Assembly (NCBI GenBank): GCA_965203325.1
Contig: OZ241875.1
Coordinates: 1,280,001 to 1,344,000 of the forward strand
Reading direction: 5' to 3'
From: a bacterium
GTDB lineage: Bacteria > UBA8248
Length of the DNA: 64,000 nt
Below are positions 2,663 through 37,748 of the stretch, piece by piece. The position numbers and the translations under genes are program-made. The notes below the pieces were generated by a model, which saw nothing but the letters and a program-made list of their open reading frames with translations, searched no databases and had not been told where the DNA came from. The stretch's first letter is position 1. Every line of letters begins with the position of its first letter.

Positions 2663-3637
2663 TCAGGGCGTGAGGACGATTTTTCCCAGGAATTTTCCGC
2701 TGAGCATCAGTTCATGCGCCGCGTTGGCCTCGGCGAGCGGGAAGGCGGCCCCCACGTGCACCTTGAAACTCCCGTCCCGCAGCATGGGGAGGTAGCGCGG
2801 CACCACTTCGGGCATCTTCCGTGCGAGGTTGACGCCGGTGACGCCAAAGACCCGCGCGTCCTTGGTCATCACGGCGGGGACGCGAAAGCCCGCGCGCTGA
2901 TCCTTCCCCAGCCCCGCCCCCATCAGGACGATTCGCCCGTCCACGCAGACCGTGTCGAGGTCCTTGTCGAAATTATCGAAGCCGGCGCTCTCGATTATCA
3001 CGTCCACGCCGCGCCCGTCGGTCAGCGCGAGGCAGCGCTCGGCGAAATCCTCCCGGCGGTAGTTTATCGTTTCCTCCGCGCCCAGTTCCCGGCAGAACGC
3101 CGCCTTCTCCTCAGAACTCACCGTGGCGAACACGCGGCAGCCCATGCGCCGCGCGAGCTGTATCGCCGCAGAACCCACGCCGCCCGCGCCGCCTTGCACC
3201 AGTACGCTCTCCCCCGGCCCGGCTTTGGCTTTGATGACGAGCGCGTTCCAGGCCGTCCTGAGGCCGAGCGTGACGCCCGCCGCCTCTTCATGCGTCATGT
3301 TATCGGGAACCACCGCCGCCGCAGGTGCGCGCAGGCGCACCACCTCCGCGTAGGCCCCGCCCGCACAGGCGCCGAACGCGCGACAGCCGACCTCGAAGCC
3401 CTGGACACCCTCGCCGACCCCGATTACCTCGCCCGAGGCTTCGAGACCGGGAACGTAGGGCGGTGTGTGATGGCCTGAGTGATGGCTCTTTCCCGAACGG
3501 GTGGCGACGTCGCTCGGGTTCACGCCCGCGGCGCGCAGGCGCACCAGCAGTTCGTCCCGCCCGGGCGCAGGCTCATCCACCTCGTCCAGCCGCATCGAGG
3601 TCTCCAGACCGAACGCCTGCACACGCATCGCCTTCAT
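2663..3637 (-). CDS. NADPH:quinone reductase (MDR / zeta-crystallin family)
   Basis: 'AAGVNPSD', 'PYVPGLEASG', 'GGAGGVGSAAIQLA', 'GKIVL'. Start moved to ATG 3637 behind an AGGAG RBS. Confidence 0.85.
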   Translation of the reverse strand: MKAMRVQAFGLETSMRLDEVDEPAPGRDELLVRLRAAGVNPSDVATRSGKSHHSGHHTPPYVPGLEASGEVIGVGEGVQGFEVGCRAFGACAGGAYAEVVRLRAPAAAVVPDNMTHEEAAGVTLGLRTAWNALVIKAKAGPGESVLVQGGAGGVGSAAIQLARRMGCRVFATVSSEEKAAFCRELGAEETINYRREDFAERCLALTDGRGVDVIIESAGFDNFDKDLDTVCVDGRIVLMGAGLGKDQRAGFRVPAVMTKDARVFGVTGVNLARKMPEVVPRYLPMLRDGSFKVHVGAAFPLAEANAAHELMLSGKFLGKIVLTP

Positions 3638-3676
3638 GGGTTGTCTCCTGTGGGAGTCACCGCGAGCCAAACCCCC

Positions 3677-4666
3677 TCAACTCTCCAGAAAATTCTCCAC
3701 CTCGCGGTATAACTCCTCGCGGCGCTTCTCCCATTCCATGTAGTGCGTGCCGTCGCCGATGACGACGAAGCGCTTGCCCCGGCTGTTCACGAGCTTTTCG
3801 AACAGACCCCACGCCTCGGCCTCGTTCGCCGATCCGTCGTAATCCCCGAAAATCAAGAGCGCCGGGCAACGCAGCTTCGCCGCGTCATAAGCCGGAATCC
3901 CCCGCGCGCGGTCGAACAGGTCGGCATAAGAGCCGTTGGGCGATTTCACCGCCGAGGGCCGCCGCCCCGCCCCCTCGGGGCTGAAGTTTAGGCGCGTCTC
4001 CCATATTGCCCGCACCACGTGCTTCTCGCGCCAGCGGTGATGCCGCGTCCCCGGAATATGCCCCCACCAGCGCCTGTGGAGGTCGGCTTCGGTCGTCCAG
4101 AACCACGCGCCGAGTTTCTCGTTGAAGTGGCCGGGGCGATCCGGGTCCTCGAACTGCGCGGCGCGCTCGGGGTTCACGCCCGCGTAGTAGGGGGCGTAGA
4201 GCACCACCCTGCGCACCTGGGGGTTGTGGGCTGAGGCGAAGGTGGGCACCGTGGTCGAGCCCCACGAGCGCCCGAGGATGTTCACCCGCTCCACCTCCCG
4301 CAGGTTTCGGATGAAGCGCACCGCCGCCCCGATATCGCGAGCGGCTGTAAAGCCGCGTATGGCGGGCGGCTTGCCGACCGGGTCTTCGATCATTTCGGGC
4401 GGATAGCTCGACCAGCCGAACCCTCGCACCGAGAGGGCGAACACGTCGTAGCCGCGCCCGGCCAGCCTGTCCATCCACGAATACCCCGGCACAGGCAGGT
4501 CGAACACCACGGGGGCGGCCGGGCCGCGCCCGTGCACCATCAGGAGCGTCTCGGCGGGCGTGAAGCGGCGCTTGCCACGGGGCCTTTTTTCGCGAATGTG
4601 AAGGCGGATGCCCTTGTCGAAAGCGTCGATGTAGTGATCCTCACAGACTATCTTTCCAGATGCCAT
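3677..4666 (-). CDS. Alpha/beta fold hydrolase
   Basis: 'LMVHG', 'RGFGWS', nucleophile GRSWG, C-terminal 'GDGTH'. Confidence 0.8.
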   Translation of the reverse strand: MASGKIVCEDHYIDAFDKGIRLHIREKRPRGKRRFTPAETLLMVHGRGPAAPVVFDLPVPGYSWMDRLAGRGYDVFALSVRGFGWSSYPPEMIEDPVGKPPAIRGFTAARDIGAAVRFIRNLREVERVNILGRSWGSTTVPTFASAHNPQVRRVVLYAPYYAGVNPERAAQFEDPDRPGHFNEKLGAWFWTTEADLHRRWWGHIPGTRHHRWREKHVVRAIWETRLNFSPEGAGRRPSAVKSPNGSYADLFDRARGIPAYDAAKLRCPALLIFGDYDGSANEAEAWGLFEKLVNSRGKRFVVIGDGTHYMEWEKRREELYREVENFLES

Positions 4667-18690: not shown

Positions 18691-19362
18691 TTATTCGTTC
18701 AGGGCGAAAATTCGAGAGGCGATATCACGACCCAGCGTATGCCGGCTACCGTTGACCAACAGCGTTACCGTGCCGGCGAGAGGCGATTGCTCGATGACTT
18801 CTATCGGCATTTCGGGGAAAAACCCCAGCTCTCCCAGGTAGCGCAATATGTTCGGGTCGTCCTGCAATACGCGGGTAATCTTCGTGGCCCGCCCCGCCTC
18901 GAGCGAGAGGAGCCCGATTTCCTTGGTATCGACCATGGTGCCGTCTTTGGCGGGAATCGGGTCCCCGTGGGGATCCAGCGTGGGATAGCCGAGCTCCTTG
19001 TCCAAAACGGCTTCCAGCTCTTCGCTCAAGACGTGCTCCAATTCTTCCGCCTCGACATCCACCTTGTCCCACTCGATTCCCATCTTCTGGTTGAGATACA
19101 GTTCGAGCAACCGGTGATGCCGAATAATCTCCAAGGCGACCTTCTCGCCCTTGGCGCTCAAGACGACCCCCTTATACGGCGTATACGTGAGCAAGCCCTG
19201 GTGATCGAGTTTCTTGACCATGCTCGTCACCGACGCCGCCGATATTTCCATGCAATCGGCTATCGCGCTCGTGGTGACCGGAGATGCTTCTTGTTGAAGC
19301 TTGAAGATGTTCTTCAAATAATCTTCGATTTGCTTGCTCAAACGCGGCGATGATTCGGGCAA
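18691..19362 (-). CDS. DtxR/MntR family metal-dependent transcriptional regulator with C-terminal FeoA domain
   Basis: 'EDYLKNI', 'SAASVTSMVKKL', 'IRHHRLLELYL', 'EAEELEHVLS', 'DPHGDPIP'. Confidence 0.92.
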   Translation of the reverse strand: MPESSPRLSKQIEDYLKNIFKLQQEASPVTTSAIADCMEISAASVTSMVKKLDHQGLLTYTPYKGVVLSAKGEKVALEIIRHHRLLELYLNQKMGIEWDKVDVEAEELEHVLSEELEAVLDKELGYPTLDPHGDPIPAKDGTMVDTKEIGLLSLEAGRATKITRVLQDDPNILRYLGELGFFPEMPIEVIEQSPLAGTVTLLVNGSRHTLGRDIASRIFALNE

Positions 19363-19471: not shown

Positions 19472-21157
19472 TTACTCATACACGAACGTGGCGGTGATCG
19501 CCTTGCGTTCGAGGCCTTCGGGAAACGGCTCGAACGGCGCCGCCTTGGCGACGGCGGCCATCGCCAAATCATCGAGAATCCGAACGCCCGCGGACCTGAT
19601 GAGACGCACATCCTCCAAAGTGCCGTTTTTCCGCAGCTTAAAGCGCAACAACAGCTCGCCCCTGTTTTTTTGCGCCTCCGCCGGCCATATCCAGGCGTTT
19701 TGGATCCTTCTCTTGATGTGAGCGAAATAAGAAGCGTATCGGAAATCACGGGTGTCAAGCGAAATGGTTTCGCCCTCTTCTCTTTCCAGCTCTTTATCCG
19801 ATGAGCTTTTTTTTGCGATTCTGTCCGCCGCCTCATCCGAGAGATCGAACTTCGGGAGCTCGGGCTTGCCTTTGGGCTGGGGCTTGACTCGAAACAACGC
19901 CAAAGGGTCTTTGGGTTGAGGCCGCTTGGGGGCTGGAGGCCGCGGTCGGACAGGTCGAGAAACCGGTTTCAACGCGGCCAGTTCAACCTTCTCCTTCGTC
20001 TGTTTCTTCGCCTCGACTTTCTTGTTCTCCTTTCGAGGCTTTTTCCGGACCACCTTTTTTTCCGCTTTCTTCCTGATCACCGGTTTGGGTTCGGGCTTCT
20101 TCTTGGGAAGCGCTTTGGCTTCTATTTTTTTCTTATCCGGCGTTTCATCTGCCGTTAGCTTTGGTTTTATCTTTTCTCCGAGAACAGGAGTTGAGACTTT
20201 TTGTGAAGGCTCAGGCGCCGGCGCAAGGCTCGCCGTCTCTGTCGGCTTTGGCGTTTCTGCTATCTCCAAAGTTTCAGGAGCTTTCCTTTCCTGTGGTTTT
20301 TCCACCTTCTTCGGTTCAGGTTTCGGCGTTACGACCGCCGGGGGCTTGGGGCTCACCGGCAGGGCGGCGGGAACTTGGGCCTTCGGTTTCGGGGCCGGGG
20401 AGGATGCGGCCATTTCCGGCTTTTTGGTATTTTCTCCCTTCGCCTCGATTTTCTGGTCCCCCTTACGAGGTTCTTTCTTGACGACCTGCTTTACCGGTTT
20501 CTGCTTGACCACCGGCTTGGGCTTGTTCTTGATCTTCGGAATCGCTTCGGCTTCTATTTTTCTCTTATCCGGCGTTTCATCTGCAGTTGGCTTTGGTTTT
20601 GCCTTTTCTTGAATCGCGGGCGGCGGGGTCTTGGGTGAAGGCTCAGGCGCCGGCGCAAGGCTCGCCATTTCCCTTGGCTTTGGCGTTTCTGCTATCTCCG
20701 AAGTTTCAGGAGCTCTCTTTTCCTGTGGTTTTTCCACCTTCTTCGGTTCAGGCTTCGGCGTTACGACCGCAGGGGGCTTGGGGCTCACCGGCAGGGCGGC
20801 GGGAGGTGGAACCTTCGGTTTTGGGGCCGGCGCCAAGGACGCTATCTCAGGGCTAACGACACCCCTGCGAGAAGGAAGCCGGTCTCTGTCTTCGCGCCTT
20901 AAGCGCGGTGTCTTGCCGGGTTTGCCGGCGCCACTTTCTTTCCGGTTGGCATTCGACAGATTTCGACTTTGGCGGTTCGGGGGAAGTTTTTCCTCGGGTT
21001 TCTCGACGGACACGACCCGAAACTTGATAGGCTGGCTTGGCTTGACGGGTTTGCTCCAAACGTATTCATGACTCGATGCCGCGAATACGATCAGGTGCAA
21101 CGATAACGATATCAGGAAAAGGGTGAAAGGAAGTTTGTTCGGTTTATCTTTCGCCAT
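19472..21157 (-). CDS. TonB/TolA family protein with a long Pro/Lys-rich linker
   Basis: N-terminal TM helix with S-x3-H ('SLSLHL'), Pro/Lys/Glu linker, C-terminal 'YFAHIKRRIQNAWIWP...RSAGVRILDDLAMAAVAKAAPFEPFP'. Confidence 0.85.
   Translation of the reverse strand: MAKDKPNKLPFTLFLISLSLHLIVFAASSHEYVWSKPVKPSQPIKFRVVSVEKPEEKLPPNRQSRNLSNANRKESGAGKPGKTPRLRREDRDRLPSRRGVVSPEIASLAPAPKPKVPPPAALPVSPKPPAVVTPKPEPKKVEKPQEKRAPETSEIAETPKPREMASLAPAPEPSPKTPPPAIQEKAKPKPTADETPDKRKIEAEAIPKIKNKPKPVVKQKPVKQVVKKEPRKGDQKIEAKGENTKKPEMAASSPAPKPKAQVPAALPVSPKPPAVVTPKPEPKKVEKPQERKAPETLEIAETPKPTETASLAPAPEPSQKVSTPVLGEKIKPKLTADETPDKKKIEAKALPKKKPEPKPVIRKKAEKKVVRKKPRKENKKVEAKKQTKEKVELAALKPVSRPVRPRPPAPKRPQPKDPLALFRVKPQPKGKPELPKFDLSDEAADRIAKKSSSDKELEREEGETISLDTRDFRYASYFAHIKRRIQNAWIWPAEAQKNRGELLLRFKLRKNGTLEDVRLIRSAGVRILDDLAMAAVAKAAPFEPFPEGLERKAITATFVYE
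19975..20835. repeat. Intragenic tandem duplication (period 432 bp = 144 aa) in the TonB linker
   Basis: TTACGACCGC.GGGGGCTTGGGGCTCACCGGCAGGGCGGCGGGA at 20329 and 20761. The peptide 'PAALPVSPKPPAVVTPKPEPKKVEKPQE' occurs twice. Outer limits approximate. Confidence 0.9.
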
Positions 21158-21236
21158 ACGTCCCTCTCTGCTCAATCTTCATCATCGCTTGAATACGTGA
21201 GAGAAGGCAAACCAGCGGATCAGAATAAATCTCCAC

Positions 21237-23440: not shown

Positions 23441-23675
23441 CAGCACGGATTCGCCTTCCAAATCGCTGATTCTTCTTTATTTAGGGATGCGCTATCGACC
23501 GGGCGGGGAACCCGGCGCGAGAAAATGTTCTGAAATCCCCGGCGATCATCCCGCCTGCCGCATCGCCGGATGACGAACGCCGCGCCATAGGCTATCTTCT
23601 CGCCGAACCAGGGCTTTCACGCTTCTCCCCGGGACGGGGAATCTCACATCCGCAACGCAAAAGGAGTTCGACCAA

Positions 23676-24452
<777 letters not shown>

Positions 24453-24652
24453 GCGGTTCCAACTCCTCATGGCGCCACACCCCGGAGCGGCGCGCCCGAA
24501 AGAGGGATGACGTTCCCTATCGACGGTCGTTCGCGCCTGCGCCCCCGGCGCATACCCGGAGCGAGTGCGCAACTGCGGGCGCTTGCGGGCAAATGCGGGG
24601 GTCAAAGCCGATGGATGAATGAGGCTTTGCCGGCGTGATGCGGTGCGGGAGG

Positions 24653-24762
24653 AAATGCAGGCGCTTGCGCGCAAATGCGGGGTTTCCAAAAAAACTTTTT
24701 TTTGCGCCATATCTGAGTGCGGGACGCTCAGGTTTCTATGGTAACTCCTTTTATTACAATCA
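24653..24762. repeat. Dispersed ~110-bp non-coding element, copy 2
   Basis: Aligns to the reverse complement of 16939-17046. Short sub-motif copies (TTGCG(C/G)GCAAATGCG) also occur near 24583 and 25007. Confidence 0.75.
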
Positions 24763-25060
24763 CTTGCATAGTCAGAAATTTTCAGGAATTTATCGAAAAA
24801 CCCCGTGAATTTATCGTATTTTACAGGAAATATCATTATTTTTATTTTCATGCCGTCCCTGAACCCATTCTCATCACGCTTCCCCGCGCCATCACCCCAT
24901 CCCATGAGAAAGCCTCCTCCGCCTGCGCCTCAGTCCGCCGGGAAAAAACCCCCTCCCCGCGTCGCGCGCACGATAGCGCAGTCTGCGGTTTTGGGAATGA
25001 CGGCAATTGCGCGCAAATGCGCCCCCGGCCCGAAAACCAACCCCCCGGATGGAGGGTTCT

Positions 25061-25239
25061 GTAGGGGTCAGACATATATGTCTGACCCCTGCGGAGTACT
25101 CATTATTGGTGTAGGGGCGGTTCGCGAACCGCCCGCATTCGTGAACGGCCCTTGCCGGAGAAACGGGCGCTTCACGAAGCGCCCCTACGGGTCGTCTCGA
25201 TACGCGGGGTTTCGTAGGGACAACCCCCTGTGGTTGTCC
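25061..25239. repeat. Cluster of GTAG-type REP-like palindromes
   Basis: GTAGGGGTCAGACATATATGTCTGACCCCTGC (25061), GTAGGGGCGGTTCGCGAACCGCCC (25111), reverse-oriented GGGCGCTTCACGAAGCGCCCCTAC (25165-25188), GTAGGGACAACCCCCTGTGGTTGTCC (25214). Confidence 0.8.
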
Positions 25240-25341
25240 GAGGCCCCCGCGCCTGTCCGGGGTCCGGCGTGTCCGCTCGATTGGCTGGAAAACCAACCCC
25301 CCCTACCCCCCCTTGAGGGTTTTGCCAATCAACGAGAGAAG

Positions 25342-25522
25342 GGATCAACTCCCCCCTTGAGGGGGAGTCGACGAGGTAAGGGCGAAGCCCGCAAGCGAGT
25401 CGGTGGGGGGAGCTTTTATTTTAGAATCGTCCCCCCACCGAGTCAGCCTTCGCAAAAAACGCTCGGCTTCCTCGTCTGGCTTTCCCCTCGGGAAGCCAGA
25501 CCCTCAAGGGGGGAGTTGATCC
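25342..25522. repeat. MITE-like palindromic element, copy A
   Basis: 22-bp terminal inverted repeats GGATCAACTCCCCCCTTGAGGG / CCCTCAAGGGGGGAGTTGATCC, with internal hairpins GGGCGAAGCCC and CGGTGGGGGG...CCCCCCACCG. Confidence 0.8.
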
Positions 25523-25920
25523 TTTTTTGCGGGGGTTGCCTTTACCCCCTGTTAAGGGGAGGTTGGGGGTCAAACCCGACCGATGAGGGAGGGTTTGCCT
25601 TTCAAGGAGAAAGGGCCGACACCCCTCAAAGGGCTGCTTTAAGGGGTTGAAAAAACCCCTGAAGATGGGAATTGCTGCGACACGATCCCCGAGGTGCAGG
25701 CCGAGTCGGGGTGTCGGCTACGTTCATGAAACGCGAAGTGGGGGCCGCCCGTTGTTCCCCCTCCCGGCTCGAGGACTCAAACTCATAACCGGGAGCGGTA
25801 CAATTTGCTCCATCACGAGGGAAGCAACCAACGGGCAACCCCCTTTTTCGCTCTCCTCATGCCGCCCCGGCCCCGGGGCCGTGAAGCCCCGGAAGCCTGA
25901 AGGCGTCCTGCTTCAAACTT

Positions 25921-28185
25921 CTAGTCGTCAAGCCGCGCGCCGTAAGCGCCGGCCGCCATACCGTTCACGAAGTTGGCGTTGAACTCGCCGACTACCGCTG
26001 CGGGAGCATCGGTATCTCCTTCTCCTGCCGCGCCATAGAATTGACCGGTAAGGGAGCCGTTATCGCCCTGCATTCCACTTGCGGAACCATTGGTTAAAGC
26101 ATAGTCGCTACCAACTATCCCCCTGATAGTGACATTCCAATTTTGCTCTTCTCCATGCTCGAGCTCAAAATTTGAGATACTTCCCCTCATTGAGTTGAGT
26201 ACACGGTTAGTTGTTCCATCGAAATGAACATGCATATACACATCAGCGGTAAAGCGGCCAGATGTGGAATAGTCATTGGAGCCATCAGCCTTCGATACCT
26301 CATGCACGTAAACGCCTGCAGCGCCGCCCGTATACTCCGCCGCTCCTGTTATAGCATCAAGTGTTCTAGTGGGGATGGTCAGGCCACTCCCGACACCGGC
26401 AAACGTCTGCACGGCGTCATAGGAAGTAACTTTGCCGTCCTTGGTGGTGGTGTCCAGCCAGAAGCCGTAGTACAGGTAATTGTCATCCGCAACGTCGACT
26501 GTAGCGCCTGCGTCAGGAGTGAACGTCCATGTTCCCGCCATTTCGGTTGCTTTGCCTTCATCATCAACTGTTACACTACAACCAGTTGAGGCACACAGAT
26601 ATGTTCCCATGGCGCCATCGAAGCGGCCTCTGTGCATACCCTCATTGACAGCTGGAGTTGTAGAATCGTCCTGATCGAATTCTTTTGTTGATTCGGCGCC
26701 TTCGTCAGGTGTCGTTACACCTAGGTCTATATGCGCCAAGTGATTTGGATCACCACTGGTAATTACGGTGAGTGATCTGAAATTATTGTCTCCAGTTCTA
26801 TCCGGGTCATCGTTTGCATTAAAAGGATAGACCTTGGTGAACGCAGTCGGGGTACCAGCATCTAGTCCATCCGTGTGCAGGACGATAATCTCCCGGCTGG
26901 TTCCACTATTATCCCTGGTAAGCATTTGACCATTGCCAAACCTCTCCGCCGTGGAAAACTTCGGGTCGCCTTTGAGAAGGTTCCTCCCGTCACGAACATC
27001 AACATTGGCTTCGCCGTCCTTATAGCTTACCGACAGTTTATATTTGGTAGCTGCATCTGGAGCTGAAGTAGCGTCATCGGCGACTTCAGCCTCAGTTCCA
27101 TCGAAAGGACGTTCTTGACCAGTAGTGGTATCTGCTTCTGCTGTGATAGCGGCCTTCTTGGTATTCGCAATCTTTGTGATCGCATCGCGGGTCTTCTTCG
27201 CAGCCGCAAGGCGCGCTGCTTCTGCATCCGCGTCCGCCTTCGCCTGATTCACCATGCCGGCATACCTCTCAGCGTTAGCGCTGGCGGTTTCCACATCCGC
27301 CTGAGCAGCTTCTGCTGCTTCTGAAGTGGTAGCAGCCTGGGCAGCCCTGTTCGCCTCTGCCGCAACACCCAGAGCCCGTTGAGCGGCATCGTAGGAATCA
27401 GGGTCGGAATCACGATTCGCCTTCGCGGCATCAACCGCGGCTTTCGCGTCCGTGTACGCCTGCATGGCGGCCTGCTTCGCGTCCGCGAGCGCGGTCGCTT
27501 CCGTGTGCGCGGCCGTCACCATGTCTGCGTATTGCATGGCATTGTCCCGCGCGGCCTCTGCATCGGCTTGCGCGGCTTCCGCGGCCTCAGACGTTTCCGC
27601 GGCCTGGGCCGCTTCGTTCGCCGCCGTCGCGGCGGCCAGTGCGGCCACGGCCCTATCGTATGAAGCGGAGTCGGCGTCACCCTGGCCGGCGATAGCATCG
27701 AGCGCGGCCTGCGCGGCATCAAGCGCGGCCTGCGCGGCCTCCTTGGCAGCATTGAGCGCCATCAATTCCATTCTGGCCGCTTCGATCGCATTGTGCGCGG
27801 TCGTCACCATGCCGGCGTATTTCTGCACGTCGGCACTCGCGGCTTCCGCATCGGCCTGCGCTGCCTCCGCGGCCGCCGGAGTCGTGGCGGCATTCGCGGC
27901 CTCCAGGGCGGCCTGTGCGTTATCGTTCGCGATTGACGCCCTGATGTATGAATCGAGATCGGCGGACTTGTTCGCTTCCACGGCCGCCAAGGCCGCAGCA
28001 GCCACTCCGGCGGCTGTCATGGCCGCCGTCTGCGCGGCCGCTATTCTCTCTTCGTCGGTCGGTCCGGTCATCGGCGGTTCTTCCGCAGTCCCGCCCCCGC
28101 CGCCGCAGCCGGCCAGCGTCAGCGCGAACACCGCCGCCAGCGCGAAAGCGTAAAGCTTGTTTATCGGTTTCTCTTTGAACGTCAT
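25921..28185 (-). CDS. Large predicted surface lipoprotein: Ala-rich helical repeats plus a C-terminal beta-rich (TbpB/Slam-substrate-like) domain
   Basis: Lipobox 'LALAAVFALTLAGC' then a Gly linker. Three Ala-rich repeats ending YA(G/D)MV. C-terminus 'GAAEYTGGAAGVY...SGRFTADV...GSLTGQFYG...VVGEFNANFVNGMAAGAYGA' resembles a TbpB-like barrel. GGAGG RBS. Confidence 0.75.
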   Translation of the reverse strand: MTFKEKPINKLYAFALAAVFALTLAGCGGGGGTAEEPPMTGPTDEERIAAAQTAAMTAAGVAAAALAAVEANKSADLDSYIRASIANDNAQAALEAANAATTPAAAEAAQADAEAASADVQKYAGMVTTAHNAIEAARMELMALNAAKEAAQAALDAAQAALDAIAGQGDADSASYDRAVAALAAATAANEAAQAAETSEAAEAAQADAEAARDNAMQYADMVTAAHTEATALADAKQAAMQAYTDAKAAVDAAKANRDSDPDSYDAAQRALGVAAEANRAAQAATTSEAAEAAQADVETASANAERYAGMVNQAKADADAEAARLAAAKKTRDAITKIANTKKAAITAEADTTTGQERPFDGTEAEVADDATSAPDAATKYKLSVSYKDGEANVDVRDGRNLLKGDPKFSTAERFGNGQMLTRDNSGTSREIIVLHTDGLDAGTPTAFTKVYPFNANDDPDRTGDNNFRSLTVITSGDPNHLAHIDLGVTTPDEGAESTKEFDQDDSTTPAVNEGMHRGRFDGAMGTYLCASTGCSVTVDDEGKATEMAGTWTFTPDAGATVDVADDNYLYYGFWLDTTTKDGKVTSYDAVQTFAGVGSGLTIPTRTLDAITGAAEYTGGAAGVYVHEVSKADGSNDYSTSGRFTADVYMHVHFDGTTNRVLNSMRGSISNFELEHGEEQNWNVTIRGIVGSDYALTNGSASGMQGDNGSLTGQFYGAAGEGDTDAPAAVVGEFNANFVNGMAAGAYGARLDD
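27225..28040 (-). repeat. Three intragenic Ala-rich repeats of about 89-96 aa
   Basis: Marker codons (CACCAT) at 27805, 27517 and 27250, i.e. 288 and 267 bp apart. Shared 'D..SY..A', 'AAEAAQAD.E.A' and 'YA.MV'. Confidence 0.85.
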
Positions 28186-28413
28186 TTAGTGAGTCCTCCT
28201 GAATACACAGTAGAAAAAGGGATTTTCCGTGAATTTCCGGCTTTCTCCGATTAACCTCCTTTCGTGAGCTTTTTTTTCGGGCCTTCACAAACTGGTGATT
28301 CGTATTTAGGGCCGCCTGGAATACGGCGGACTTGAACCCTTTCATGCTCCGGGCCGGTCGTGAGTCGTTCCGGGAGAGGCGGATTCCTTCGGTATGCGTC
28401 CCCCTTCCCCGGC

Positions 28414-28447
28414 CTGGGCGCCGGTAATTGATGTTATCGGCCCCCAG
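28414..28447. other. lox-like recombination site, left (14-6-14)
   Basis: CTGGGCGCCGGTAA-TTGATG-TTATCGGCCCCCAG. Arms are 12/14 complementary around an asymmetric spacer. Confidence 0.7.
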
Positions 28448-28569
28448 AAGCCCCGTTTTCCGCCGAAAAACCCGTTTCGGGGCGCATTCGGGCCGTATAT
28501 GAACGAAAAATAAGCGAAAAAAGGCGCAAAACGGCGCCCGAAACCCCTCCGGGGACCCCGGAATTGCGC

Positions 28570-28599
28570 TTGACATGGCCGTGAGAGGTGTTATATCTT
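28570..28599 (+). promoter_or_regulatory. Sigma70-type promoter inside the putative invertible segment
   Basis: TTGACA at 28570-28575. The -10 is TATCTT at 28594-28599 (18-bp spacer) or TG-n-TATATC (16-bp spacer). Phased A-tracts upstream. Confidence 0.65.
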
Positions 28600-28626
28600 C
28601 TGATAACATCAATTATCGGACTCCAG
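28593..28626. other. lox-like recombination site, right, inverted relative to the left site
   Basis: ATATCTTCTGATAA-CATCAA-TTATCGGACTCCAG. The spacer is the exact reverse complement of the left spacer, and 28600-28619 matches the reverse complement of 28421-28440 at 18/20. Confidence 0.7.
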
Positions 28627-28806
28627 AATACCCACTGCCTCGCCAGGAACTCCGCCTGCATTCGCTTGGAGGAACAGCTTTTTTTCTTGGAAATACGCCG
28701 TCGTCGTTTAAACTCCCCAATCGACGAGGCCCTTGAGCGAAACGAGGCGCTCGAACGGCTTTATGAATTGGAAACGGCCGCCGACCCGGAAGGTTCGCTT
28801 CTCTCC

Positions 28807-29730
28807 ATGACGACGGAGGCGACATCGCCCGTCCCGGCTTCAACGACGGCCCCGGTCCGCCCGGCCGCCGACCTGGCGAAGGCCTCGATGGCGAAGAACA
28901 CACGGCGGGCGTACGAGACGGCGCTCAGGGCGTTCGAGCGTTCGGGCCGCCCGGAGACCGACGCCGGGGTGGCGGCGTACCTGGGGGATCTCTACGAGGG
29001 AGGTCTGTCCGCGGCCGTAGCCTCCATGGCGGTCGCGGCGCTGCGCTTCCGGGCGAAGCTGGGCGGGTGGCCCTCCCCGGTGGGGGCGGCCGCCGAGCGG
29101 GTGCTGGCCGGCTTCCGGCGCCTGGCCGCGGAGCGCGGGAGCGGCCAGGTGACGGGGGTGCGCTGGGAGGAGGCGGACCGCGCGGCGACGCTGGCCGAGC
29201 GCTCGGGGACCCTGGGCGGCCTGCGCGACGCGGCGATCATCGCGGTGGCGAGCGACGCCCTGCTCCGGGTGTCGGAGGTCGAGGCGCTCGACGTCGCCGA
29301 CGTGGACCTGGGCGAGCAGACGGTGCTGGTCCGGCGCTCGAAGACGGACCAGGAGGGCGCGGGCGTCCTGCAGTTTCTGGGCGACCCGACCCTGGCGCGC
29401 GTCCGGGCCTGGCTCGAGGGGTCGGGTCTCGCAGAAGGAGCGCTCTTCCGGGCCGTCCACAGGTCGGGCCGGGTGCTGGCGGGGCGCCTGACGGAGAGGG
29501 GCATCCGGCGCATCATCGCCCACCGCGCGCGGGAGGCGGGCCTGGAGGGGCGCATCAGCGGGCACAGCCTCCGCGTGGGCAGCGCGCAGAGCCTCGCCAC
29601 GTCGGGGGCGTCGCTGGTCGAGATGCAAATCGCCGGCCGCTGGCGCTCGCCCGCCATGCCGGGGCGCTACGCGGAGGGCCAGCTCGCGAAACAGGGCGCG
29701 ACGGCGCGGCTGCGCTACGGCCCGCCGTGA
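28807..29730 (+). CDS. Cre-like tyrosine recombinase
   Basis: Catalytic set R ('LLRVSE'), K ('RRSKTDQ'), H-x-x-R ('SGHSLRVG'), W ('AGRW') and Y ('MPGRY'). N-terminal 'NTRRAY' core-binding domain. No arm-binding domain. Confidence 0.9.
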   Translation: MTTEATSPVPASTTAPVRPAADLAKASMAKNTRRAYETALRAFERSGRPETDAGVAAYLGDLYEGGLSAAVASMAVAALRFRAKLGGWPSPVGAAAERVLAGFRRLAAERGSGQVTGVRWEEADRAATLAERSGTLGGLRDAAIIAVASDALLRVSEVEALDVADVDLGEQTVLVRRSKTDQEGAGVLQFLGDPTLARVRAWLEGSGLAEGALFRAVHRSGRVLAGRLTERGIRRIIAHRAREAGLEGRISGHSLRVGSAQSLATSGASLVEMQIAGRWRSPAMPGRYAEGQLAKQGATARLRYGPP

Positions 29731-29740
29731 GGCAGCTCTC

Positions 29741-29877
29741 GGACAGGTACGGGGGCCTGTCCCTACGGGATCGGTGGCCGGAATGACGGGTGTTGTGATC
29801 TCTACAAAAGGGTGTCGTAGGGGCGCTTCGTGAAGCGCCCGTTTCTCCGGCAAGGGCCGTTCGCGAACGGCCCCTAC
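29741..29877. repeat. GTAG-type REP-like palindromes directly downstream of the recombinase
   Basis: GGACAGG-TACGGGGG-CCTGTCCCTAC (29741-29766) and the doublet GTAGGGGCGCTTCGTGAAGCGCCC...GGGCCGTTCGCGAACGGCCCCTAC (29817-29877). Confidence 0.8.
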
Positions 29878-30014
29878 AAAATCATGATTCCCTGGCCATG
29901 AACCCCTCAACCCCCCTTTCAGGGGATAAAGGCAACCCCCCTACCCCCCTTGTCGGGCCTGTTGAAAAACCCGGCGTTCGTCATCTATGGCGCGCTCTCC
30001 CCACCAAAGAGAAT

Positions 30015-30306
30015 TTCAAATCAACTCCCCCCTTGAGGGTCTGTTGAGAAAGCCTGGAACTCTGGATTTGTCGTATGTGACCGACCGACGAGAGAGAAAA
30101 ATCAACTCCCCCCTTGAGGGGGAGTCGGCAAGACGAGGGCGAAGCCCGAAGTCGCGCCGGTGGGGGGAGTTTTTTCTGTGGCATGTCCCCCCACCGAATC
30201 GACCTTCGCAAAAAACGCTCGGCCTCTTCGACTCCCCCTCAAGGGGGGAGTTGATTGCATATCTCGCGCGTGAAGGAATGCCCCTCAAGGGGGGAGTGAA
30301 TTTGAA
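30015..30306. repeat. MITE-like palindromic element, copy B (30100-30256), nested inside a second pair of the same terminal repeats
   Basis: Perfect 28-bp inverted repeats at 30100-30127 / 30229-30256. Outer near-perfect pair at 30015-30039 / 30282-30306. Confidence 0.8.
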
Positions 30307-31990: not shown

Positions 31991-32259
31991 CTTTTTTGCG
32001 GGGGGTGCTTTTTTATACCCCCCTGACAAGGGGGGGTAGGGGGGGCAGGACAGCCCCGAGGAGGGGCTGTCCTTTATCCCCTGACAAAGGGGGTTGGGGG
32101 GTCGAACGCGACCGGGGAGGGAGCGTTCGTTCCCTTGACAAAAACTTTTTCAACAACCCCGAAGGCCGGGGTCGATATTCTCATCCGGCGCGGACGGGCC
32201 GGATGTCCGATAGGGGATAGCGTCAGAAGACAGAACAGCCAGCCAGGGAGGTGCGAAGA

Positions 32260-33366
32260 ATGAAATCAGTTCGCGTTGACAGGCGCCGGATACTCTGCGG
32301 AGTCCTGCTGAGCGCCTGGGTTTTGCTCCCCGCCGCGGGCCAGGGGGCTGCTCTCGCGCCCCTGCCGGCGCCCAAGGCCCAGAAGCCCGCGCAGGCCGAA
32401 CTGGGCCGGTACCTGTTCTTCGACCCCCGGATGTCGGGGGACGGAGGGGTCAGCTGCGCCACCTGCCACCAGCCCGCGAAGGGCTGGGGCGACGGGCAGG
32501 CGCTCTCGGCGGGTTATCCGGGGAGCAAGTATTTCCGGAACGCCCAGACGCTCTTGAACGCCGCCTACAACAAGCGCGTCTTCTGGGACGGCCGCCTGAG
32601 CGGGGCCGACCTGCCCACGCTCGTGCGGGACCACCTGACCGAAGCCCACTTCATGCTGGTCGACGGCCGCCTGTTCCCCGAGCGCCTCAAGCAGGTGCCG
32701 CTTTATGTGAAGAAATTCAAGGAGGTCTACGGCGGAGAGCCCTCCTTCGGCGGCGCGCTCAAGGCCATCGCGGCGTTCCTGCACACCATCGCCTCCAAAA
32801 ACGCGCCTTTCGACAACTACCTGAAGGGCGACAAAAAGGCCCTTTCCGCCGAGGCGCAAAAGGGCCTCGCCCTGTTCAGTGGAAAGGCCGGATGCGTTCA
32901 GTGCCATAACGGCGCGCTATTGAGCGACGGCGGGTTCCACGCGCTCGGCGTCCCCGAGAACGAACAGATATTCAAGGACCCGCTGCGCCACATCACCTTC
33001 CGGCGGTTCAACAAGGTCATCGGCGTCCCCAACTTCATGAACCTGAGGGCCGACCCCGGCCTCTACGTCGTGACGAAACAGGAGAGCGACCGCGGCAAGT
33101 TCCGCACGCCGACCCTGCGCGAAGTCGCCCGGACGGCGCCCTACATGCACAACGGCGCACTCGCCGCGCTTGAAGACGTCGTCGCCTTCTACGACAGGGG
33201 CGGCGGGAGCGGCCCCAACAAGAGCTCGCGCTTGAAGCCGCTGGGGCTGACTGCGGATGAGAAGAAGGCCCTGGTGGCGTTCCTTAAGAGCCTCTCGGGC
33301 GAGACGGTTTCTGCTGCGGCGCCGAAAATTCCCGATTATGAACTTCGCAAACTCGGCGATAATTGA
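32260..33366 (+). CDS. Di-haem cytochrome c peroxidase/MauG family protein (IdrP-like)
   Basis: Signal peptide, 'LGRYLFFDPRMS', haem motifs CATCH and CVQCH, 'FWDGR', 'GKFRTPTLR', 'APYMHNG'. Confidence 0.88.
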   Translation: MKSVRVDRRRILCGVLLSAWVLLPAAGQGAALAPLPAPKAQKPAQAELGRYLFFDPRMSGDGGVSCATCHQPAKGWGDGQALSAGYPGSKYFRNAQTLLNAAYNKRVFWDGRLSGADLPTLVRDHLTEAHFMLVDGRLFPERLKQVPLYVKKFKEVYGGEPSFGGALKAIAAFLHTIASKNAPFDNYLKGDKKALSAEAQKGLALFSGKAGCVQCHNGALLSDGGFHALGVPENEQIFKDPLRHITFRRFNKVIGVPNFMNLRADPGLYVVTKQESDRGKFRTPTLREVARTAPYMHNGALAALEDVVAFYDRGGGSGPNKSSRLKPLGLTADEKKALVAFLKSLSGETVSAAAPKIPDYELRKLGDN

Positions 33367-33376
33367 GGAGACGGCC

Positions 33377-34516
33377 ATGAACGCGCGAATCAAAAACTGC
33401 TTCCTGGGTTCCACGATGGCCGTATGCTTCATCGCCGCTCTTCTGGTGGGAGGAGCAAGCGCGGCCCAGGAGGGGAAATTCCCTCCGCTGGGACCCTTGC
33501 CGCCTGTTCCGGTGCCCGCGGACAACCCCATGTCCGCCGCCAAGGTGGCGCTCGGCAAGCTGCTCTTCTTCGACGCCCGCCTCTCGGGCGACGCCAGCAC
33601 GTCGTGCGCCTCCTGCCACAGCCCCGAGAGCGGCTGGGGGGACGGGGGCGATCTGAGCCGGGGCTACCCCGGCACGCAGCACTGGCGGAACTCCCAGACG
33701 ATCCTCAATTCCGCCTACTACGCCAAACTGTTCTGGGCGGGCGAGTCTACGAGCCTCGAAGCGCAGGCGAAGAGCGCCGCCACGGGCAACGTGGCGGGCA
33801 ACGGCGACACCATGATGATGGAGGAGCGCCTGCGCCAGGTCCCCGAATACGTCAGGCGCTTCCGGGCGGTGTTCGGCTCCCCCTGGCCCACCATCGACGA
33901 CGCCTGGCGGGCCATCTCCGCCTTCGAGCGCACCGTGGTGTCGAACGCGAAGGACGTGCCCTTCGACCGCTTCATGAAAGGCGAGGAGAAGGCGCTCTCG
34001 GACAGCGCTAAGCGCGGGCTGGCTCTCTTCCAGGGAAAGGCCGGGTGCGTCCAGTGCCACAACGGCGCGCTTTTATCGGATGAGGACTACCACAACGTCG
34101 GCGTTCCCAGGAACCCCGCGTTCGAGGAAGACCCCTTAAGGCAGATAACGCTTCGCTACCAGCACGTCATCCGCGGCGTTCCCGAATCCGTCTACCGCAA
34201 GGCGGACCGGGACCTGGGGCTCTTCTACACCACCAAGCGCGAGGCCGATAAGGGGAGGTTCCGCACCCCGAGCCTTAGAGAGCTCAAATACACCGCGCCC
34301 TACATGCACAACGGCGCATTTTTCGAGTTGGATGAGGTCATCGATTTTTATGACGAAGGGGGCGGCGAGGACGCGAACAAGAGTCCCCTCATCAAGAAAC
34401 TGGGACTTTCGGACGAGGAGAAAGAAGACCTGCTGGCGTTTCTGGAATCGCTCTCGAGCGATAAGCCCCTGCTCGTCCGGCCCCCCGAACTGCCGCCGTA
34501 TGCGGCCATGCCGTAA
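33377..34516 (+). CDS. Di-haem cytochrome c peroxidase/MauG family protein (IdrP-like), second paralog
   Basis: Signal peptide, 'PADNPMS..KVALGKLLFFDARLSGD', CASCH and CVQCH, 'GRFRTPSLR', 'APYMHNG'. GAGGAG RBS. Confidence 0.88.
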   Translation: MNARIKNCFLGSTMAVCFIAALLVGGASAAQEGKFPPLGPLPPVPVPADNPMSAAKVALGKLLFFDARLSGDASTSCASCHSPESGWGDGGDLSRGYPGTQHWRNSQTILNSAYYAKLFWAGESTSLEAQAKSAATGNVAGNGDTMMMEERLRQVPEYVRRFRAVFGSPWPTIDDAWRAISAFERTVVSNAKDVPFDRFMKGEEKALSDSAKRGLALFQGKAGCVQCHNGALLSDEDYHNVGVPRNPAFEEDPLRQITLRYQHVIRGVPESVYRKADRDLGLFYTTKREADKGRFRTPSLRELKYTAPYMHNGAFFELDEVIDFYDEGGGEDANKSPLIKKLGLSDEEKEDLLAFLESLSSDKPLLVRPPELPPYAAMP

Positions 34517-34526
34517 GGAGGAATCC

Positions 34527-35069
34527 ATGACTCAGGAAGCCAAGGAAACCCGGCCTTGCGTCTCGCGGCGCGCCTTTCTCCTGGCCGGCGGAACCGCCGT
34601 GAGCATCGTGCTGGTCCAGGGCATCCCCGGCCTGGCCGGAGCGGCCCTGCAAAGGGCGGAGTATCCCCGCCAGAAAATCGGGACGCTCAGCGCCTTGAAA
34701 GTCGATGCGCCGCAATTCTTCCAGTACCCGTGGAAGGACGTCTTCTCGGGGTGCATGCTGGTCAAACTGGGCGTTCAAGCCGGCGGCGGCGTCGGTCCCA
34801 AGCGGGACGTGGTGGCGTTCAGCACCCTCTGCACCCACATGGGCGGCCCCCTGCAGGGAACCTATAACGCGCAGCACAAGGCCATCGGCCCGTGCCCGTT
34901 CCATCTGACGACCTTCGACCTGATGAAGCACGGCATGGTCGGGGCGGGGCAGGCCACCGAAAGCCTCCCCCAGGTGGTTCTGGAGACCCGAGGAGACGAC
35001 ATCTACGCGATCGGGATGATGGGGCTGCTGTATGGTTATCACTCGAATCTGGCGCCGGTACAGCGCTGA
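34527..35069 (+). CDS. idrB: Rieske [2Fe-2S] small subunit, IdrB/AioB family, Tat-exported
   Basis: Tat motif 'SRRAFLL'. Rieske ligands 'CTHMGG' and 'CPFH' lack the disulfide cysteines. Also 'GGGVGP..DVVAFS' and 'GQATESLPQV'. Confidence 0.75.
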   Translation: MTQEAKETRPCVSRRAFLLAGGTAVSIVLVQGIPGLAGAALQRAEYPRQKIGTLSALKVDAPQFFQYPWKDVFSGCMLVKLGVQAGGGVGPKRDVVAFSTLCTHMGGPLQGTYNAQHKAIGPCPFHLTTFDLMKHGMVGAGQATESLPQVVLETRGDDIYAIGMMGLLYGYHSNLAPVQR

Positions 35070-35081
35070 GGAGGACGCATC

Positions 35082-37748
35082 ATGGCAGGAAAGGTGACGA
35101 ACTACTATCTTGCGGAAGACAGTGTCCCCCTCCCCCCGCCGAACGCGGAGGTGTTCACCACGGCGTGCGACTACTGCATCGTGGGCTGCGGGTACAAGGT
35201 CTACCGCTGGCCGATCGGTCGCGAGGGCGGACCCAAGGCGAGCCAGAACGCCCTGCGCGTCGATTTCCCCACCGCCATCATGAGCGGCGGCTGGGTCAGC
35301 CCGAACATGCACAACATCATCATGGTGAACGGCAGTCCCCACCACGTCGTCGTCATGCCGGACAAGGATGCGAATGTCGTGAACGTGGGGGGGAACCACT
35401 CCATCCGGGGCGGCGTCCTGGCCAAGAAGCTCTACAACCCCAACGAACCCTCGCAGGACCGCCTGCGCCAGCCGATGATGCGGGTCCGCGGCACCTTGCA
35501 GGAGGTCTCGTGGGACACGGCGGTGGGCGTCATGGCGGGACTCTCGAAGCACGTCCTCGACAAGTACGGCGAACACGCCTGGGCCATGAAGACGTATTCC
35601 TATCAGTATTTCGAGAACACCTACGCCATCTCCAAGCTCGCTTTCCGCGCCATCGGAACGCCGGCCTACGCCCCGCACGACAAGCCGGGCCCCGGCAAGG
35701 ACACGCCCGGGATCGATTTTTCCGGCATCAACCCCTTCAGCGCCTCCTATGACGACTGGGGAGAGGCCGAGGTCATCTTCTTCTCGGGCGTCGACCCCTG
35801 GGAGACCAAGTCGGTGCTGTTCACCTCGTGGATCATGGGCGGGAAAACGCCGAGCAAGAAACTCGTCTTCGCCATGCCGCGCAAGACCTCGGGCGTGGCC
35901 TACGGCGAGAAGCGCGGCGGCCTCTTTCTCCCCGTCATTCCGGGGACGGACACGGTGCTCCACCTGGCCATCATCCGCCTGATTCTGGAGAACGGCTGGG
36001 AGGACAAGGAGTGGATCGCGCGAAAAATCTCGAACAAGTGGGAGATCGGCTCCGGCATGGGCCGCGGCACCCGCAACACGCCCTGGCAGTGGGTCACGAC
36101 CTGGGGCAAGTACGGGACGGACTTCGAGGGCTACAGGAAGTGGATCATGAGCTACCCCTACGCCGAACTGGAGAGGGCCGCGAAGATCACCGGCGTGCCC
36201 GCGGCGTCCATCCGCCAGACGGCGGAAATACTCGCCAAGCCCAAAGCGGACGGAACGCGCAAGAAGACCTCGTTCATGCTCGAGAAGGGCAATTACTGGT
36301 GCAACAGTTTCGGGAACACGGCTTCCTTCGCGGCGCTGGGGCTGGTCTGCGGCGCCGGGTCGCGGCCGGGCCGGGTGATCTCCCGAGGCGGTGGACACCA
36401 GCGGGGCTGGATGGGAGGGGCCGGTTATCCGAGGAGCCTGTCGCCGGAGAAGGCGCCGGGGCGCCGCAAGAAGGAGATCGACCTCGACCGCTGGGTCGTG
36501 GACGGCCATGTGCGCTTCGCATGGGTCATCGGGACCACCTGGTGCCAGGCCATGGCGGCGTCTCAGGAGTTGATGGACGTCTTCCAGCGATTGACGCGCC
36601 GCAACCCGCACCAGATCGAGAGCTTCGACGTCGATACGGCGGTGGATGCGCTGAAGCGGCGGACGGACGCCGGCGGCATGGTCGTCGCCCACCAGGACAT
36701 CTACCCCGTTTCCCCGATCGGAACCGAGTATGCGGACCTGGTGCTCCCGGCCGCCACCTGGGGCGAGGAGGACTTCACCCGGTGCAACGGCGAGCGCCGC
36801 CTCAGGCTCTACAGCAAGTTCGCCGACCCCCCCGGAGAGGCCCGGCCCGACTGGTGGATCATCGCGGCCTTCGCGCGGAAGATGGGCTTCAAGGGCTTCG
36901 ACTGGAAGGACAGCAACCAGATATTCGAGGAGGCGGCCCGCTTCGGCCGCAAGGGGGTGCTCAACTACCACCCGCTCGTGGTGAAGGCCAAGCGCGAGGG
37001 GAAACGAGGCCACGAGCTGCTCCGCGAATACGGGACCGGCGGCATCCAAACCCCCATCCGCATGGTCAAGGGCGAACTCGTCGGTACGAAGCGCCTCCAC
37101 GACGAGACCCTGGAACTCGGAACCCCCGAGGGACCCACAATGCACCGGAAATGGCTCACCTCCTTCGGCACCCAGAGCGGCAAGGCGGTCTTGCTGAAAA
37201 GCTACTGGGAGGATTTCAAGGATTTCTACGATCGGGTCACCCCGCAGGGAGACGAGCTGTGGGTGACGAACGGCCGGATCAACGAGCTCTGGCAATCCGG
37301 CTACGACGACAAGCGGCGGCCCTACATCATGCAGCGCTGGCCCCAGCAGTTCCTGGAAATTCACCCCAAAGACGCCGGCGCCCGGGGCATCGAATCAGGA
37401 GACCTGGTGGCCATCGAGAACGACGACCTGCTCGTGCAGACGGGCGGATACATCGGCGTCGACGGCAAGGAGCAGACGTTCACCGAGCTCATGAAGGCCG
37501 GGAATATCAAGAAGAGCAAGGGGAGCTTCACCGCTGTGGCCATGGTCACGGACGCGGTCCGGGAGGGCGTCACCTTCGCCTATTTCGGCTTTCCCGAGAA
37601 CCCGGCGAACTCGGTGGTCCACCGGGTGCCGGATCCCCTGACCAACCGCTACCGCTACAAGCTGGGCAAGGGGAAATTGAAGAAGATAGGAGAATCTCCG
37701 CACAAGCATTCGCTGACGAGCTTAAGCTTCGTCCCCCGGACGCTTTGA
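35082..37748 (+). CDS. idrA: DMSO-reductase-family molybdoenzyme large subunit, IdrA (iodate reductase) clade / arsenite-oxidase-like
   Basis: 'VPLPP.NAEV.TTACDYCIVGCGYKVYRWP' ([3Fe-4S] C-x2-C-x3-C plus 'HSIRGG' Ser), 'MKTYSYQYFENTYAISK', 'GRGTRNTPWQW.TTWG', 'EKGNYW', 'RGGGHQRG'. Lacks the AioA 'HNRPAYNSE' motif. Flanked by two peroxidases. Confidence 0.75.
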   Translation: MAGKVTNYYLAEDSVPLPPPNAEVFTTACDYCIVGCGYKVYRWPIGREGGPKASQNALRVDFPTAIMSGGWVSPNMHNIIMVNGSPHHVVVMPDKDANVVNVGGNHSIRGGVLAKKLYNPNEPSQDRLRQPMMRVRGTLQEVSWDTAVGVMAGLSKHVLDKYGEHAWAMKTYSYQYFENTYAISKLAFRAIGTPAYAPHDKPGPGKDTPGIDFSGINPFSASYDDWGEAEVIFFSGVDPWETKSVLFTSWIMGGKTPSKKLVFAMPRKTSGVAYGEKRGGLFLPVIPGTDTVLHLAIIRLILENGWEDKEWIARKISNKWEIGSGMGRGTRNTPWQWVTTWGKYGTDFEGYRKWIMSYPYAELERAAKITGVPAASIRQTAEILAKPKADGTRKKTSFMLEKGNYWCNSFGNTASFAALGLVCGAGSRPGRVISRGGGHQRGWMGGAGYPRSLSPEKAPGRRKKEIDLDRWVVDGHVRFAWVIGTTWCQAMAASQELMDVFQRLTRRNPHQIESFDVDTAVDALKRRTDAGGMVVAHQDIYPVSPIGTEYADLVLPAATWGEEDFTRCNGERRLRLYSKFADPPGEARPDWWIIAAFARKMGFKGFDWKDSNQIFEEAARFGRKGVLNYHPLVVKAKREGKRGHELLREYGTGGIQTPIRMVKGELVGTKRLHDETLELGTPEGPTMHRKWLTSFGTQSGKAVLLKSYWEDFKDFYDRVTPQGDELWVTNGRINELWQSGYDDKRRPYIMQRWPQQFLEIHPKDAGARGIESGDLVAIENDDLLVQTGGYIGVDGKEQTFTELMKAGNIKKSKGSFTAVAMVTDAVREGVTFAYFGFPENPANSVVHRVPDPLTNRYRYKLGKGKLKKIGESPHKHSLTSLSFVPRTL

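Follow-up and report, generated by a model that had tools for sequence, protein, structure and literature searches.

A probable Cre/lox-like promoter inversion switch beside a lipoprotein gene, one of 16 such switches in the genome of a sponge-associated Nitrospinota bacterium

The 64,000-nucleotide stretch of DNA analyzed here, called the window (positions 1,280,001 to 1,344,000 of contig OZ241875.1, assembly GCA_965203325.1), carries a promoter cassette of 213 bp between a lipoprotein gene and the gene for a Cre-like tyrosine recombinase, which read outward from it on either side. The cassette includes two 34-bp lox-like sites in inverted orientation that flank a predicted promoter (Table 1). 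An earlier reading of the sequence alone, referred to below as the original prediction, had proposed a Cre/lox-like invertible promoter at this place, and the present analysis supports that proposal. Very likely, the window locus is a site-specific DNA-inversion promoter switch worked by a Cre-family tyrosine recombinase and one of 16 such switches in the genome, and we regard the switch as real and as probably active. The evidence comes from both orientations of the segment among sister modules and relatives, from an exchange of arms at the core of the sites, from co-variation of the cores, from the Cre-like enzyme and from the lipoprotein cargo. The comparisons employed 52 modules in which both sites were readable, 16 of them from the same genome and 36 from 10 relatives, so that 11 genomes of the genus are represented; 37 loci had been fetched from relatives and one of them (L012), cut by the end of its contig, was left out.

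Table 1. Features of the switch and its two flanking genes (positions within the window)
Feature	Position	Strand	Details
Lipoprotein cargo gene	25921..28185	-	754 aa; signal peptide, lipobox LAGC
Leader of the lipoprotein gene	28186..28413	-	228 nt; no promoter-like site within it; AGGAGG (28195-28200) nine bases ahead of the ATG
Left lox-like site, cargo side	28414..28447		outer arm 28414-28427, core TTGATG 28428-28433, inner arm 28434-28447
Invertible segment, core to core	28428..28612		185 bp; promoter at one end, terminator-like hairpin on the other strand; fully reversed, with inner arms swapped, in flipped sister modules
Terminator-like hairpin (putative function)	28512..28539	- (opposite the promoter strand)	6-bp G+C stem followed by T-run
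Sigma-70-like promoter (predicted)	28570..28599	+	-35 TTGACA 28570-28575; -10 TATCTT 28594-28599 (18-nt spacing) or TATATC 28592-28597 (16-nt spacing, TG upstream)
Right lox-like site, recombinase side	28593..28626		degenerate inner arm 28593-28606 (holds the -10), core CATCAA 28607-28612, outer arm 28613-28626
Cre-like tyrosine recombinase gene	28807..29730	+	307 aa from ATG 28807; frame open from 28588

The two sites have exactly the letters and the positions that the original prediction gave for them, and each of them shows the layout of a Cre-type target, namely 34 bp with inverted arms around an asymmetric centre, beside a recombinase gene. A repeat search returned an inverted repeat of 25 nt (28414-28438 and 28602-28626), which is 84% complementary with 163 nt between its arms, and a direct repeat of 21 nt (28434-28454 and 28613-28633) at a spacing of 179. 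When at most one mismatch was allowed, the half-site pattern TAA-N6-TTAYCGGNNNCCAG was encountered three times in the window, in all cases at the switch, and 100 shuffled sequences gave a mean of 0.01. Three of the arms fit CTGgngtCCgaTAA and the fourth retains only CTGATAA. This fourth arm had been described as degenerate where it overlaps the -10 box, which is borne out by the position of the latter (28592-28599), and its degenerate form is not peculiar to the window locus, as it is conserved as atATTtTCTGATAA over the 50 modules scored. According to the arm consensus of the 52 modules, the TAA and TTA that flank the six variable bases are invariant, and therefore a parse as 13-8-13, in which the variable bases are enclosed by a constant A and T, fits each site equally well. 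The layout of loxP is 13-8-13, and a G-A-T-A-like motif adjoining the spacer has been reported for active Cre-type sites, both according to PMC10250229; in the arm consensus obtained here, a G-A-T-A-like motif adjoins the spacer as well.

The predicted product of the gene to the right of the sites contains a catalytic domain of the tyrosine recombinases (Pfam PF00589, E 2.5e-17). Among sequence matches to solved structures obtained with HMMER, 17 of 18 belong to Cre or to Tre, an engineered variant of it (best E 1.4e-14, residues 45-302), and the remaining one is an archaeal XerC-like protein (E 1.3e-3). In a Foldseek search with the predicted structure, all listed ranks down to 30 were taken by Cre or Tre (best E 5.2e-11, template modelling score (TM) about 0.46), followed by XerA at 2e-7, with lambda Int and XerD also lower, and thus Xer, lambda Int and other branches of the family are more distant from the enzyme than Cre is. 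The catalytic residues listed for Cre in PMC10250229 are R173, K201, H289, R292, W315 and Y324, and all six positions are aligned and present in the window enzyme in the HMMER alignment. Among these positions, H253, R256 and W279 of the window enzyme do not vary within 43 homologues, and conservation is 90% or more for R154, K179 and Y288. The original designation of the enzyme as Cre-like is thus borne out by sequence, fold and catalytic residues. Assignments to the Xer, integron-integrase and FimB/FimE groups were rejected, because all the corresponding NCBIfam models scored far below their cut-offs, and the model for tyrosine-type DNA invertases reached 23.9 bits as compared with a cut-off of 222. 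The start of the gene is uncertain, as a TTG at 28768 aligns with the ATG used by most sister genes. The family is large, with 2736 proteins at E of 1e-10 or below among the 8000 candidates scored, and the few named members are labelled as stemming from metagenome-assembled genomes of Nitrospinae or Rhodospirillaceae. Its occurrence in a sample of the phylum is patchy (14 of 51 genomes including its own; 11 of 22 in the genus and two of 28 outside it).

The predicted promoter inside the segment faces the recombinase gene as assembled. In a consensus scan over both strands of 28100-28900, TTGACA-18-TATCTT, with 10 of 12 matches, was the sole promoter-like site, as compared with a mean of 0.1 in shuffled sequences. 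Conservation in the module is highest over the -35 hexamer, its flanks and the bases from there to the -10, and the -35 with its flanks is at least 98% conserved over the 52 modules. Both the scan and the conservation agree with the earlier claim that a TTGACA promoter within the segment is aimed at the recombinase gene. An exact match to the conserved promoter motif was not found in the metagenome_contigs collection, and Rfam gave no match in 27900-29000 at E up to 1. The terminator-like hairpin and its T-run are retained in most of the 52 modules and, if it works as a terminator, it would halt transcription crossing the segment toward the gene that does not face the promoter and so shield that gene from read-through. 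A second hairpin, seen by eye at about 28466-28482 on the minus strand, was dropped because RNAfold prefers another fold. The leader of the lipoprotein gene, into which the promoter would read after inversion, is 74-93% identical in the six other class-1 loci.

A BLAST search of the whole 4.39-Mb genome with the region of the switch returned 16 copies of the 145-bp interior of the segment at 90-95% identity, each of them located between two such sites. For the arm motif, 26 occurrences were counted in the genome and none in a reversed control. The original prediction had also announced a new pair of recombinase and target site; the pair is neither single nor unique, as it belongs to one of 16 switches in the genome. 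Seven of the 16 switches have as cargo lipoprotein genes with the signal peptide of the window protein, and the other nine have large open reading frames (ORFs), three of which were scanned and all carry Calx-beta, cadherin-like and fn3 domains. When the copies were oriented by their conserved flanks, 13 were found as in the window, with the promoter directed to the recombinase side, and three (at 2078, 2672 and 3869 kb of the genome) were reversed. In the reversed modules the outer arms remain with their flanks and the inner arms are swapped, with the point of exchange exactly at the 6-bp core, as predicted by strand exchange within the central six bases. On either side of the module, the 2078-kb locus shares 94% identity with its paralogue at 705 kb, and only the inversion of the module sets the two apart. 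A single arm of the four is weak and, as inversion makes the inner arms trade places, either state would possess one good and one half-weak site and the anatomy of the sites locks nothing.

A repeated unit of 213 bp with 16 copies in the genome and terminal inverted repeats of 25 nt might also be a miniature inverted-repeat transposable element with an outward promoter. However, no target-site duplications or direct repeats were detected beside the outer arms in the 16 copies, and homology does not end at the terminal repeats, as it extends past both of them into the cargo leader and the recombinase gene. Besides, the flipped copies have exchanged inside the repeats instead of being whole elements inserted anew, and every copy precedes a surface-protein gene. 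This interpretation was therefore rejected, and we consider it extremely improbable.

The recombinase gene is intact at six of the 16 loci, carries a large internal deletion at seven (L047, L048, L052, L054, L058, L059 and L060), by which about 40 N-terminal residues are fused directly to the C-terminal end, and is missing at three. The locus L059, whose recombinase gene is deleted, is nevertheless flipped. At L050 (positions 2982-4427 of the locus, own genome at about 1.71 Mb), a DDE transposase gene (DUF772, DDE_Tnp_1) occupies the place of the recombinase gene about 0.7 kb past the right site, and there homology to the other loci stops exactly at the site. A gene for a 239-aa protein with an excisionase-type HTH_17 domain (L053:6250-6969, minus strand; assignment based on one copy scanned against Pfam) is convergent with the recombinase gene at 10 of the 16 own loci, the window not being among them, and one truncated copy was also found. 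Past this gene, a short inverted copy of the 3' end of the recombinase gene is located. The HTH_17 protein may be a directionality or regulatory factor.

Within the genus, 22 other genomes were searched, of which 12 contain the module, with 17 copies in one of them (G012), and so does one of 18 genomes outside the genus. The records of the relatives are labelled as sponge-associated Nitrospinota, and the sequencing runs holding the window DNA are largely sponge metagenomes. A proposed check had been to look for the same site pair beside homologous recombinase genes, and paired sites were indeed conserved in the 52 modules of the 11 genomes. Orientation was assigned by the side of the recombinase gene and, where that gene is missing, by the side of the cargo ORF and its leader. 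In this way 45 modules were oriented as in the window and seven were flipped, namely the three own modules, L020 and L025 in G012, L044 in G014 and L045 in G004. Both orientations, with breakpoints inside the repeats, thus occur among paralogues and among orthologues. The orthologous case is an orphan switch beside an EamA transporter gene, which is flipped in the own genome (L056, with no recombinase gene) and unflipped in G012 (L017), with neighbouring DNA that is 96.7-97.5% identical. Hence, this very locus has undergone an inversion after the divergence of the two species and, as L056 is flipped in spite of having no recombinase gene, the switch must be served in trans.

In order to compare the cores, sites were located by their arms alone and only then were their central six bases examined. 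The spacers of the window, TTGATG and CATCAA, had been described as exact reverse complements, which holds at this locus, and the same complementarity was found in 51 of the 52 modules with a total of 22 distinct cores. When partners were shuffled 10,000 times, 3.2 matches were obtained on average and never more than 11. As the 52 modules share ancestry and are not independent, the telling figure is that of the 22 distinct cores, each of which is matched on both sides. The sole unmatched module is L058 (own genome, about 3371.5 kb), in which TTGCCG is paired with the complement of TTGCCA; it is one of those with a deleted recombinase gene and may be a naturally locked switch. None of the cores of the 52 modules is palindromic, and hence every site has a direction. 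Between orthologues, cores differ at both sites, as seen for L056 (TTGCTG) and L017 (TTGCTA), which differ by one base, and for the window (TTGATG) and its apparent orthologue L011 in G012 (TTGCTG).

Several observations weigh against a privately addressed, currently active switch at the window locus. Cores are repeated within the genome, TTGACG being present at four switches and TTGCCG at another four, so that insulation between switches would be incomplete. Shared cores are also what would be expected if the lox-like sites served recombination between loci (shuffling of cargo, exchange of cassettes or rearrangement of the chromosome) or the resolution of dimers, and not local flipping. The window recombinase and its right-hand neighbour are syntenic (92% and 95% identical, respectively) with L011 in G012 and L026 in G016, and this synteny ends at the switch, as the left neighbour, an enoyl-CoA hydratase gene, maps to a different contig in G012 and in G016 and the cargo lipoprotein genes are not the same (window 23600-28400). 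Such a break on the cargo side hints that cargo or chromosome arms have been exchanged at modules. Furthermore, the natural site of Cre is a single one beside its gene, as stated in PMC10250229. However, all seven flipped modules keep the cargo leader on one side and the flank of the recombinase side on the other, as local inversion gives, and exchange between loci would yield modules with two cargo leaders or two recombinase flanks, of which none was seen among the 52. The resolution of dimers is impossible for two sites in inverted orientation. We therefore regard a main function in inter-locus recombination or resolution as very unlikely.

The orientation of the window locus itself also speaks against a switch that flips at present. 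The window locus, L011 and L026 are all found in the recombinase-facing orientation, and this sameness between the window and two apparent orthologues suggests that switching at the window could be rare. As a check at the population level, 23 runs listed with this DNA, none of them an RNA run, were considered as Logan contigs, and four contig sets were aligned to the locus at 93% likeness. No inversion joint was present among those listed in the four sets, but contigs break at repeats and so this result gives no verdict on flipping; in three runs a contig begins at 28599, which is accounted for by a 30-mer that the paralogue at 2585 kb of the genome also contains. Taken together with the 45 modules of the 52 that are oriented as in the window, these observations would agree with a relic, that is with a family that once inverted and a window locus fixed in the recombinase-facing state, where the sites would mainly be operators for autoregulation of the recombinase gene. 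This seems unlikely to us, although less so than a role in inter-locus recombination, because the window locus retains two intact sites with matched cores and an intact recombinase frame with all six catalytic residues and because complementarity persists in 51 modules though the cores change, which needs continuing selection for recombination. Furthermore, one orthologous pair differs in orientation between two species. Two further points against the proposed switch concern its parts. The search for terminator-like hairpins found one as compared with a mean of 1.5 in shuffled sequences, which is not significant when taken alone, and the AlphaFold model of the recombinase is of moderate quality (predicted local distance difference test (pLDDT) 70.1, residues 251-307 below 50, TM 0.46 to Cre).

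With these reservations, the switch that is favoured here would work as follows. The Cre-family recombinase would bind the two inverted 34-bp lox-like sites, and strand exchange in their 6-bp asymmetric cores would reverse the 185-bp segment. In the assembled state, transcription from the promoter would cross the right site and enter the recombinase gene, and the lipoprotein gene would be promoterless (OFF). After inversion, it would pass the left site and the 228-nt leader and reach the lipoprotein gene (ON), with the recombinase gene deprived of its promoter. It had been suggested that such an arrangement gives a self-limiting switch. This would hold only if the recombinase acted in cis, which is unlikely, since L056 (no gene) and L059 (deleted gene) are flipped and only six of the 16 loci possess an intact recombinase gene. 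Instead, the 16 switches would be served by the six intact recombinase paralogues, probably in trans. As the cores differ between switches and match within each of them, recombination would stay within one switch, similar to what is known for engineered heterospecific lox sites, and the expected outcome would be a sponge-associated Nitrospinota bacterium in which many surface proteins are switched ON and OFF independently of one another. A further proposal, to which we give roughly even chances, is that of a natural "address code", in which a few trans-acting Cre-family paralogues would run up to 16-17 switches per genome, each of them being private through its own 6-bp crossover sequence that changes in concert at both sites.

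The cargo of the window switch is a lipoprotein, as had been claimed, according to its LAGC signal peptide and a modelled fold similar to those of TbpB, NHBA and fHbp. No Pfam or NCBIfam family was recognized in the protein by sequence. The family is found throughout the genus with a conserved signal peptide and C-terminal end, and the LAGC lipobox is present in most of the ORFs listed. In the genome_contigs collection, only relatives of 45-68% identity over most of the length were found, in addition to one match of 25 residues to the signal peptide, and in metagenome_contigs no relative of the lipoprotein was found. For the C-terminal 325 residues, modelling with 32 family members gave an all-beta fold (pLDDT 80.6, predicted template modelling score 0.68), whose top Foldseek matches are NHBA (E 9.5e-5), PmSLP, TbpB, HpuA, fHbp and LbpB, with modest TM values of 0.2-0.35 of the query. 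The genome contains one match to Slam (PF04575, 95.5 bits, above cut-off) at 1776843-1777712, so that a lipobox, a C-terminal fold and a Slam protein as known for Slam-dependent surface lipoproteins are all present. Modelled fold and context thus support a surface lipoprotein, which would presumably be exposed on the cell. The third-position G+C content of the lipoprotein gene is 0.59, as compared with 0.80-0.90 for most neighbours and 0.88 for the recombinase gene. At a distance of 5-9 kb from this TbpB-like lipoprotein gene, 18691-19362 encodes an iron-dependent repressor of the DtxR type that includes a FeoA domain, and 19472-21175 encodes a protein of 567 aa carrying a TonB C-terminal domain.

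Further away in the window, at 32251-37748, two adjacent genes for di-haem cytochrome c peroxidases (CCP/MauG) are followed by a gene for an 888-aa molybdopterin oxidoreductase with an N-terminal Rieske_3 domain, a layout similar to that of arsenite oxidase. Dense short repeats are present at 29736-30100 and at 24800-25900, and pieces of the former match about a hundred places in the genome at 73-100% identity. The region 31740-32000 matches more than 100 places in each of three relatives. The dense short repeats look like repetitive extragenic palindromic (REP)-type elements.

Promoter inversion by tyrosine recombinases is a known form of phase variation. In E. coli, FimB and FimE, encoded beside the short invertible promoter segment fimS, switch a surface structure ON and OFF. 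This is a single switch with much shorter inverted repeats, it needs accessory proteins and its recombinases belong to another branch of the tyrosine recombinases. Bacteroides genomes contain many promoter switches for surface molecules, operated by a global invertase and by local tyrosine recombinases, whose families and repeat sequences differ from those of the window system. We know of no lox-like 34-bp sites or locus-specific cores in Bacteroides. Invertible promoters of Bacteroides are mentioned in PMC2268961. In Mycoplasma penetrans, most of 38 lipoprotein genes of the mpl (P35) family possess their own invertible promoter, which is flipped by a tyrosine recombinase (PMC2268961 and PMC8593674). 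This is the closest case in function, as it concerns a chromosome-wide lipoprotein family with an adjacent promoter for each gene and independent ON/OFF states. It differs in phylum and in lipoprotein family, and also in that a recombinase gene is located at most switches in the case described here.

The closest solved relative of the window enzyme by sequence and fold is Cre of the phage P1 Cre/loxP system, with the same catalytic residues including the Trp in place of a second His. Both systems employ a 34-bp site with inverted arms and an asymmetric centre, and in both the central bases of partner sites must match, which for the window system is suggested by co-variation. In contrast to Cre, with which it shares about 22% identity in fold alignments, the window enzyme is chromosomal with up to six intact copies and is not encoded by a phage or plasmid. 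Unlike loxP, the sites described here are inverted pairs around a promoter, one arm is degenerate and doubles as a -10 box and the central bases vary by locus. A description of a Cre-like promoter switch family was not found in a literature search in which subscription journals were thinly covered. The supplements of PMC10250229 list about 500 predicted pairs of recombinase and site and may already contain relatives of the window enzyme. What appears to be new is a promoter invertase of the Cre branch, lox-like sites with locus-specific cores that co-evolve and the setting in sponge-associated Nitrospinota.

If this interpretation holds, the switch would represent a natural use of Cre-type enzymes beyond the maintenance of phages or plasmids and would mean programmed surface variation in an uncultured, sponge-associated lineage of Nitrospinota. 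The recombinase, with natural targets spanning 22 cores, would be useful for orthogonal genome engineering. If the address code is also true, it would be a natural counterpart of engineered heterospecific lox sites and would supply a ready set of orthogonal sites for one enzyme, and for the bacterium it would mean that lipoproteins and giant adhesins vary combinatorially without scrambling the chromosome.

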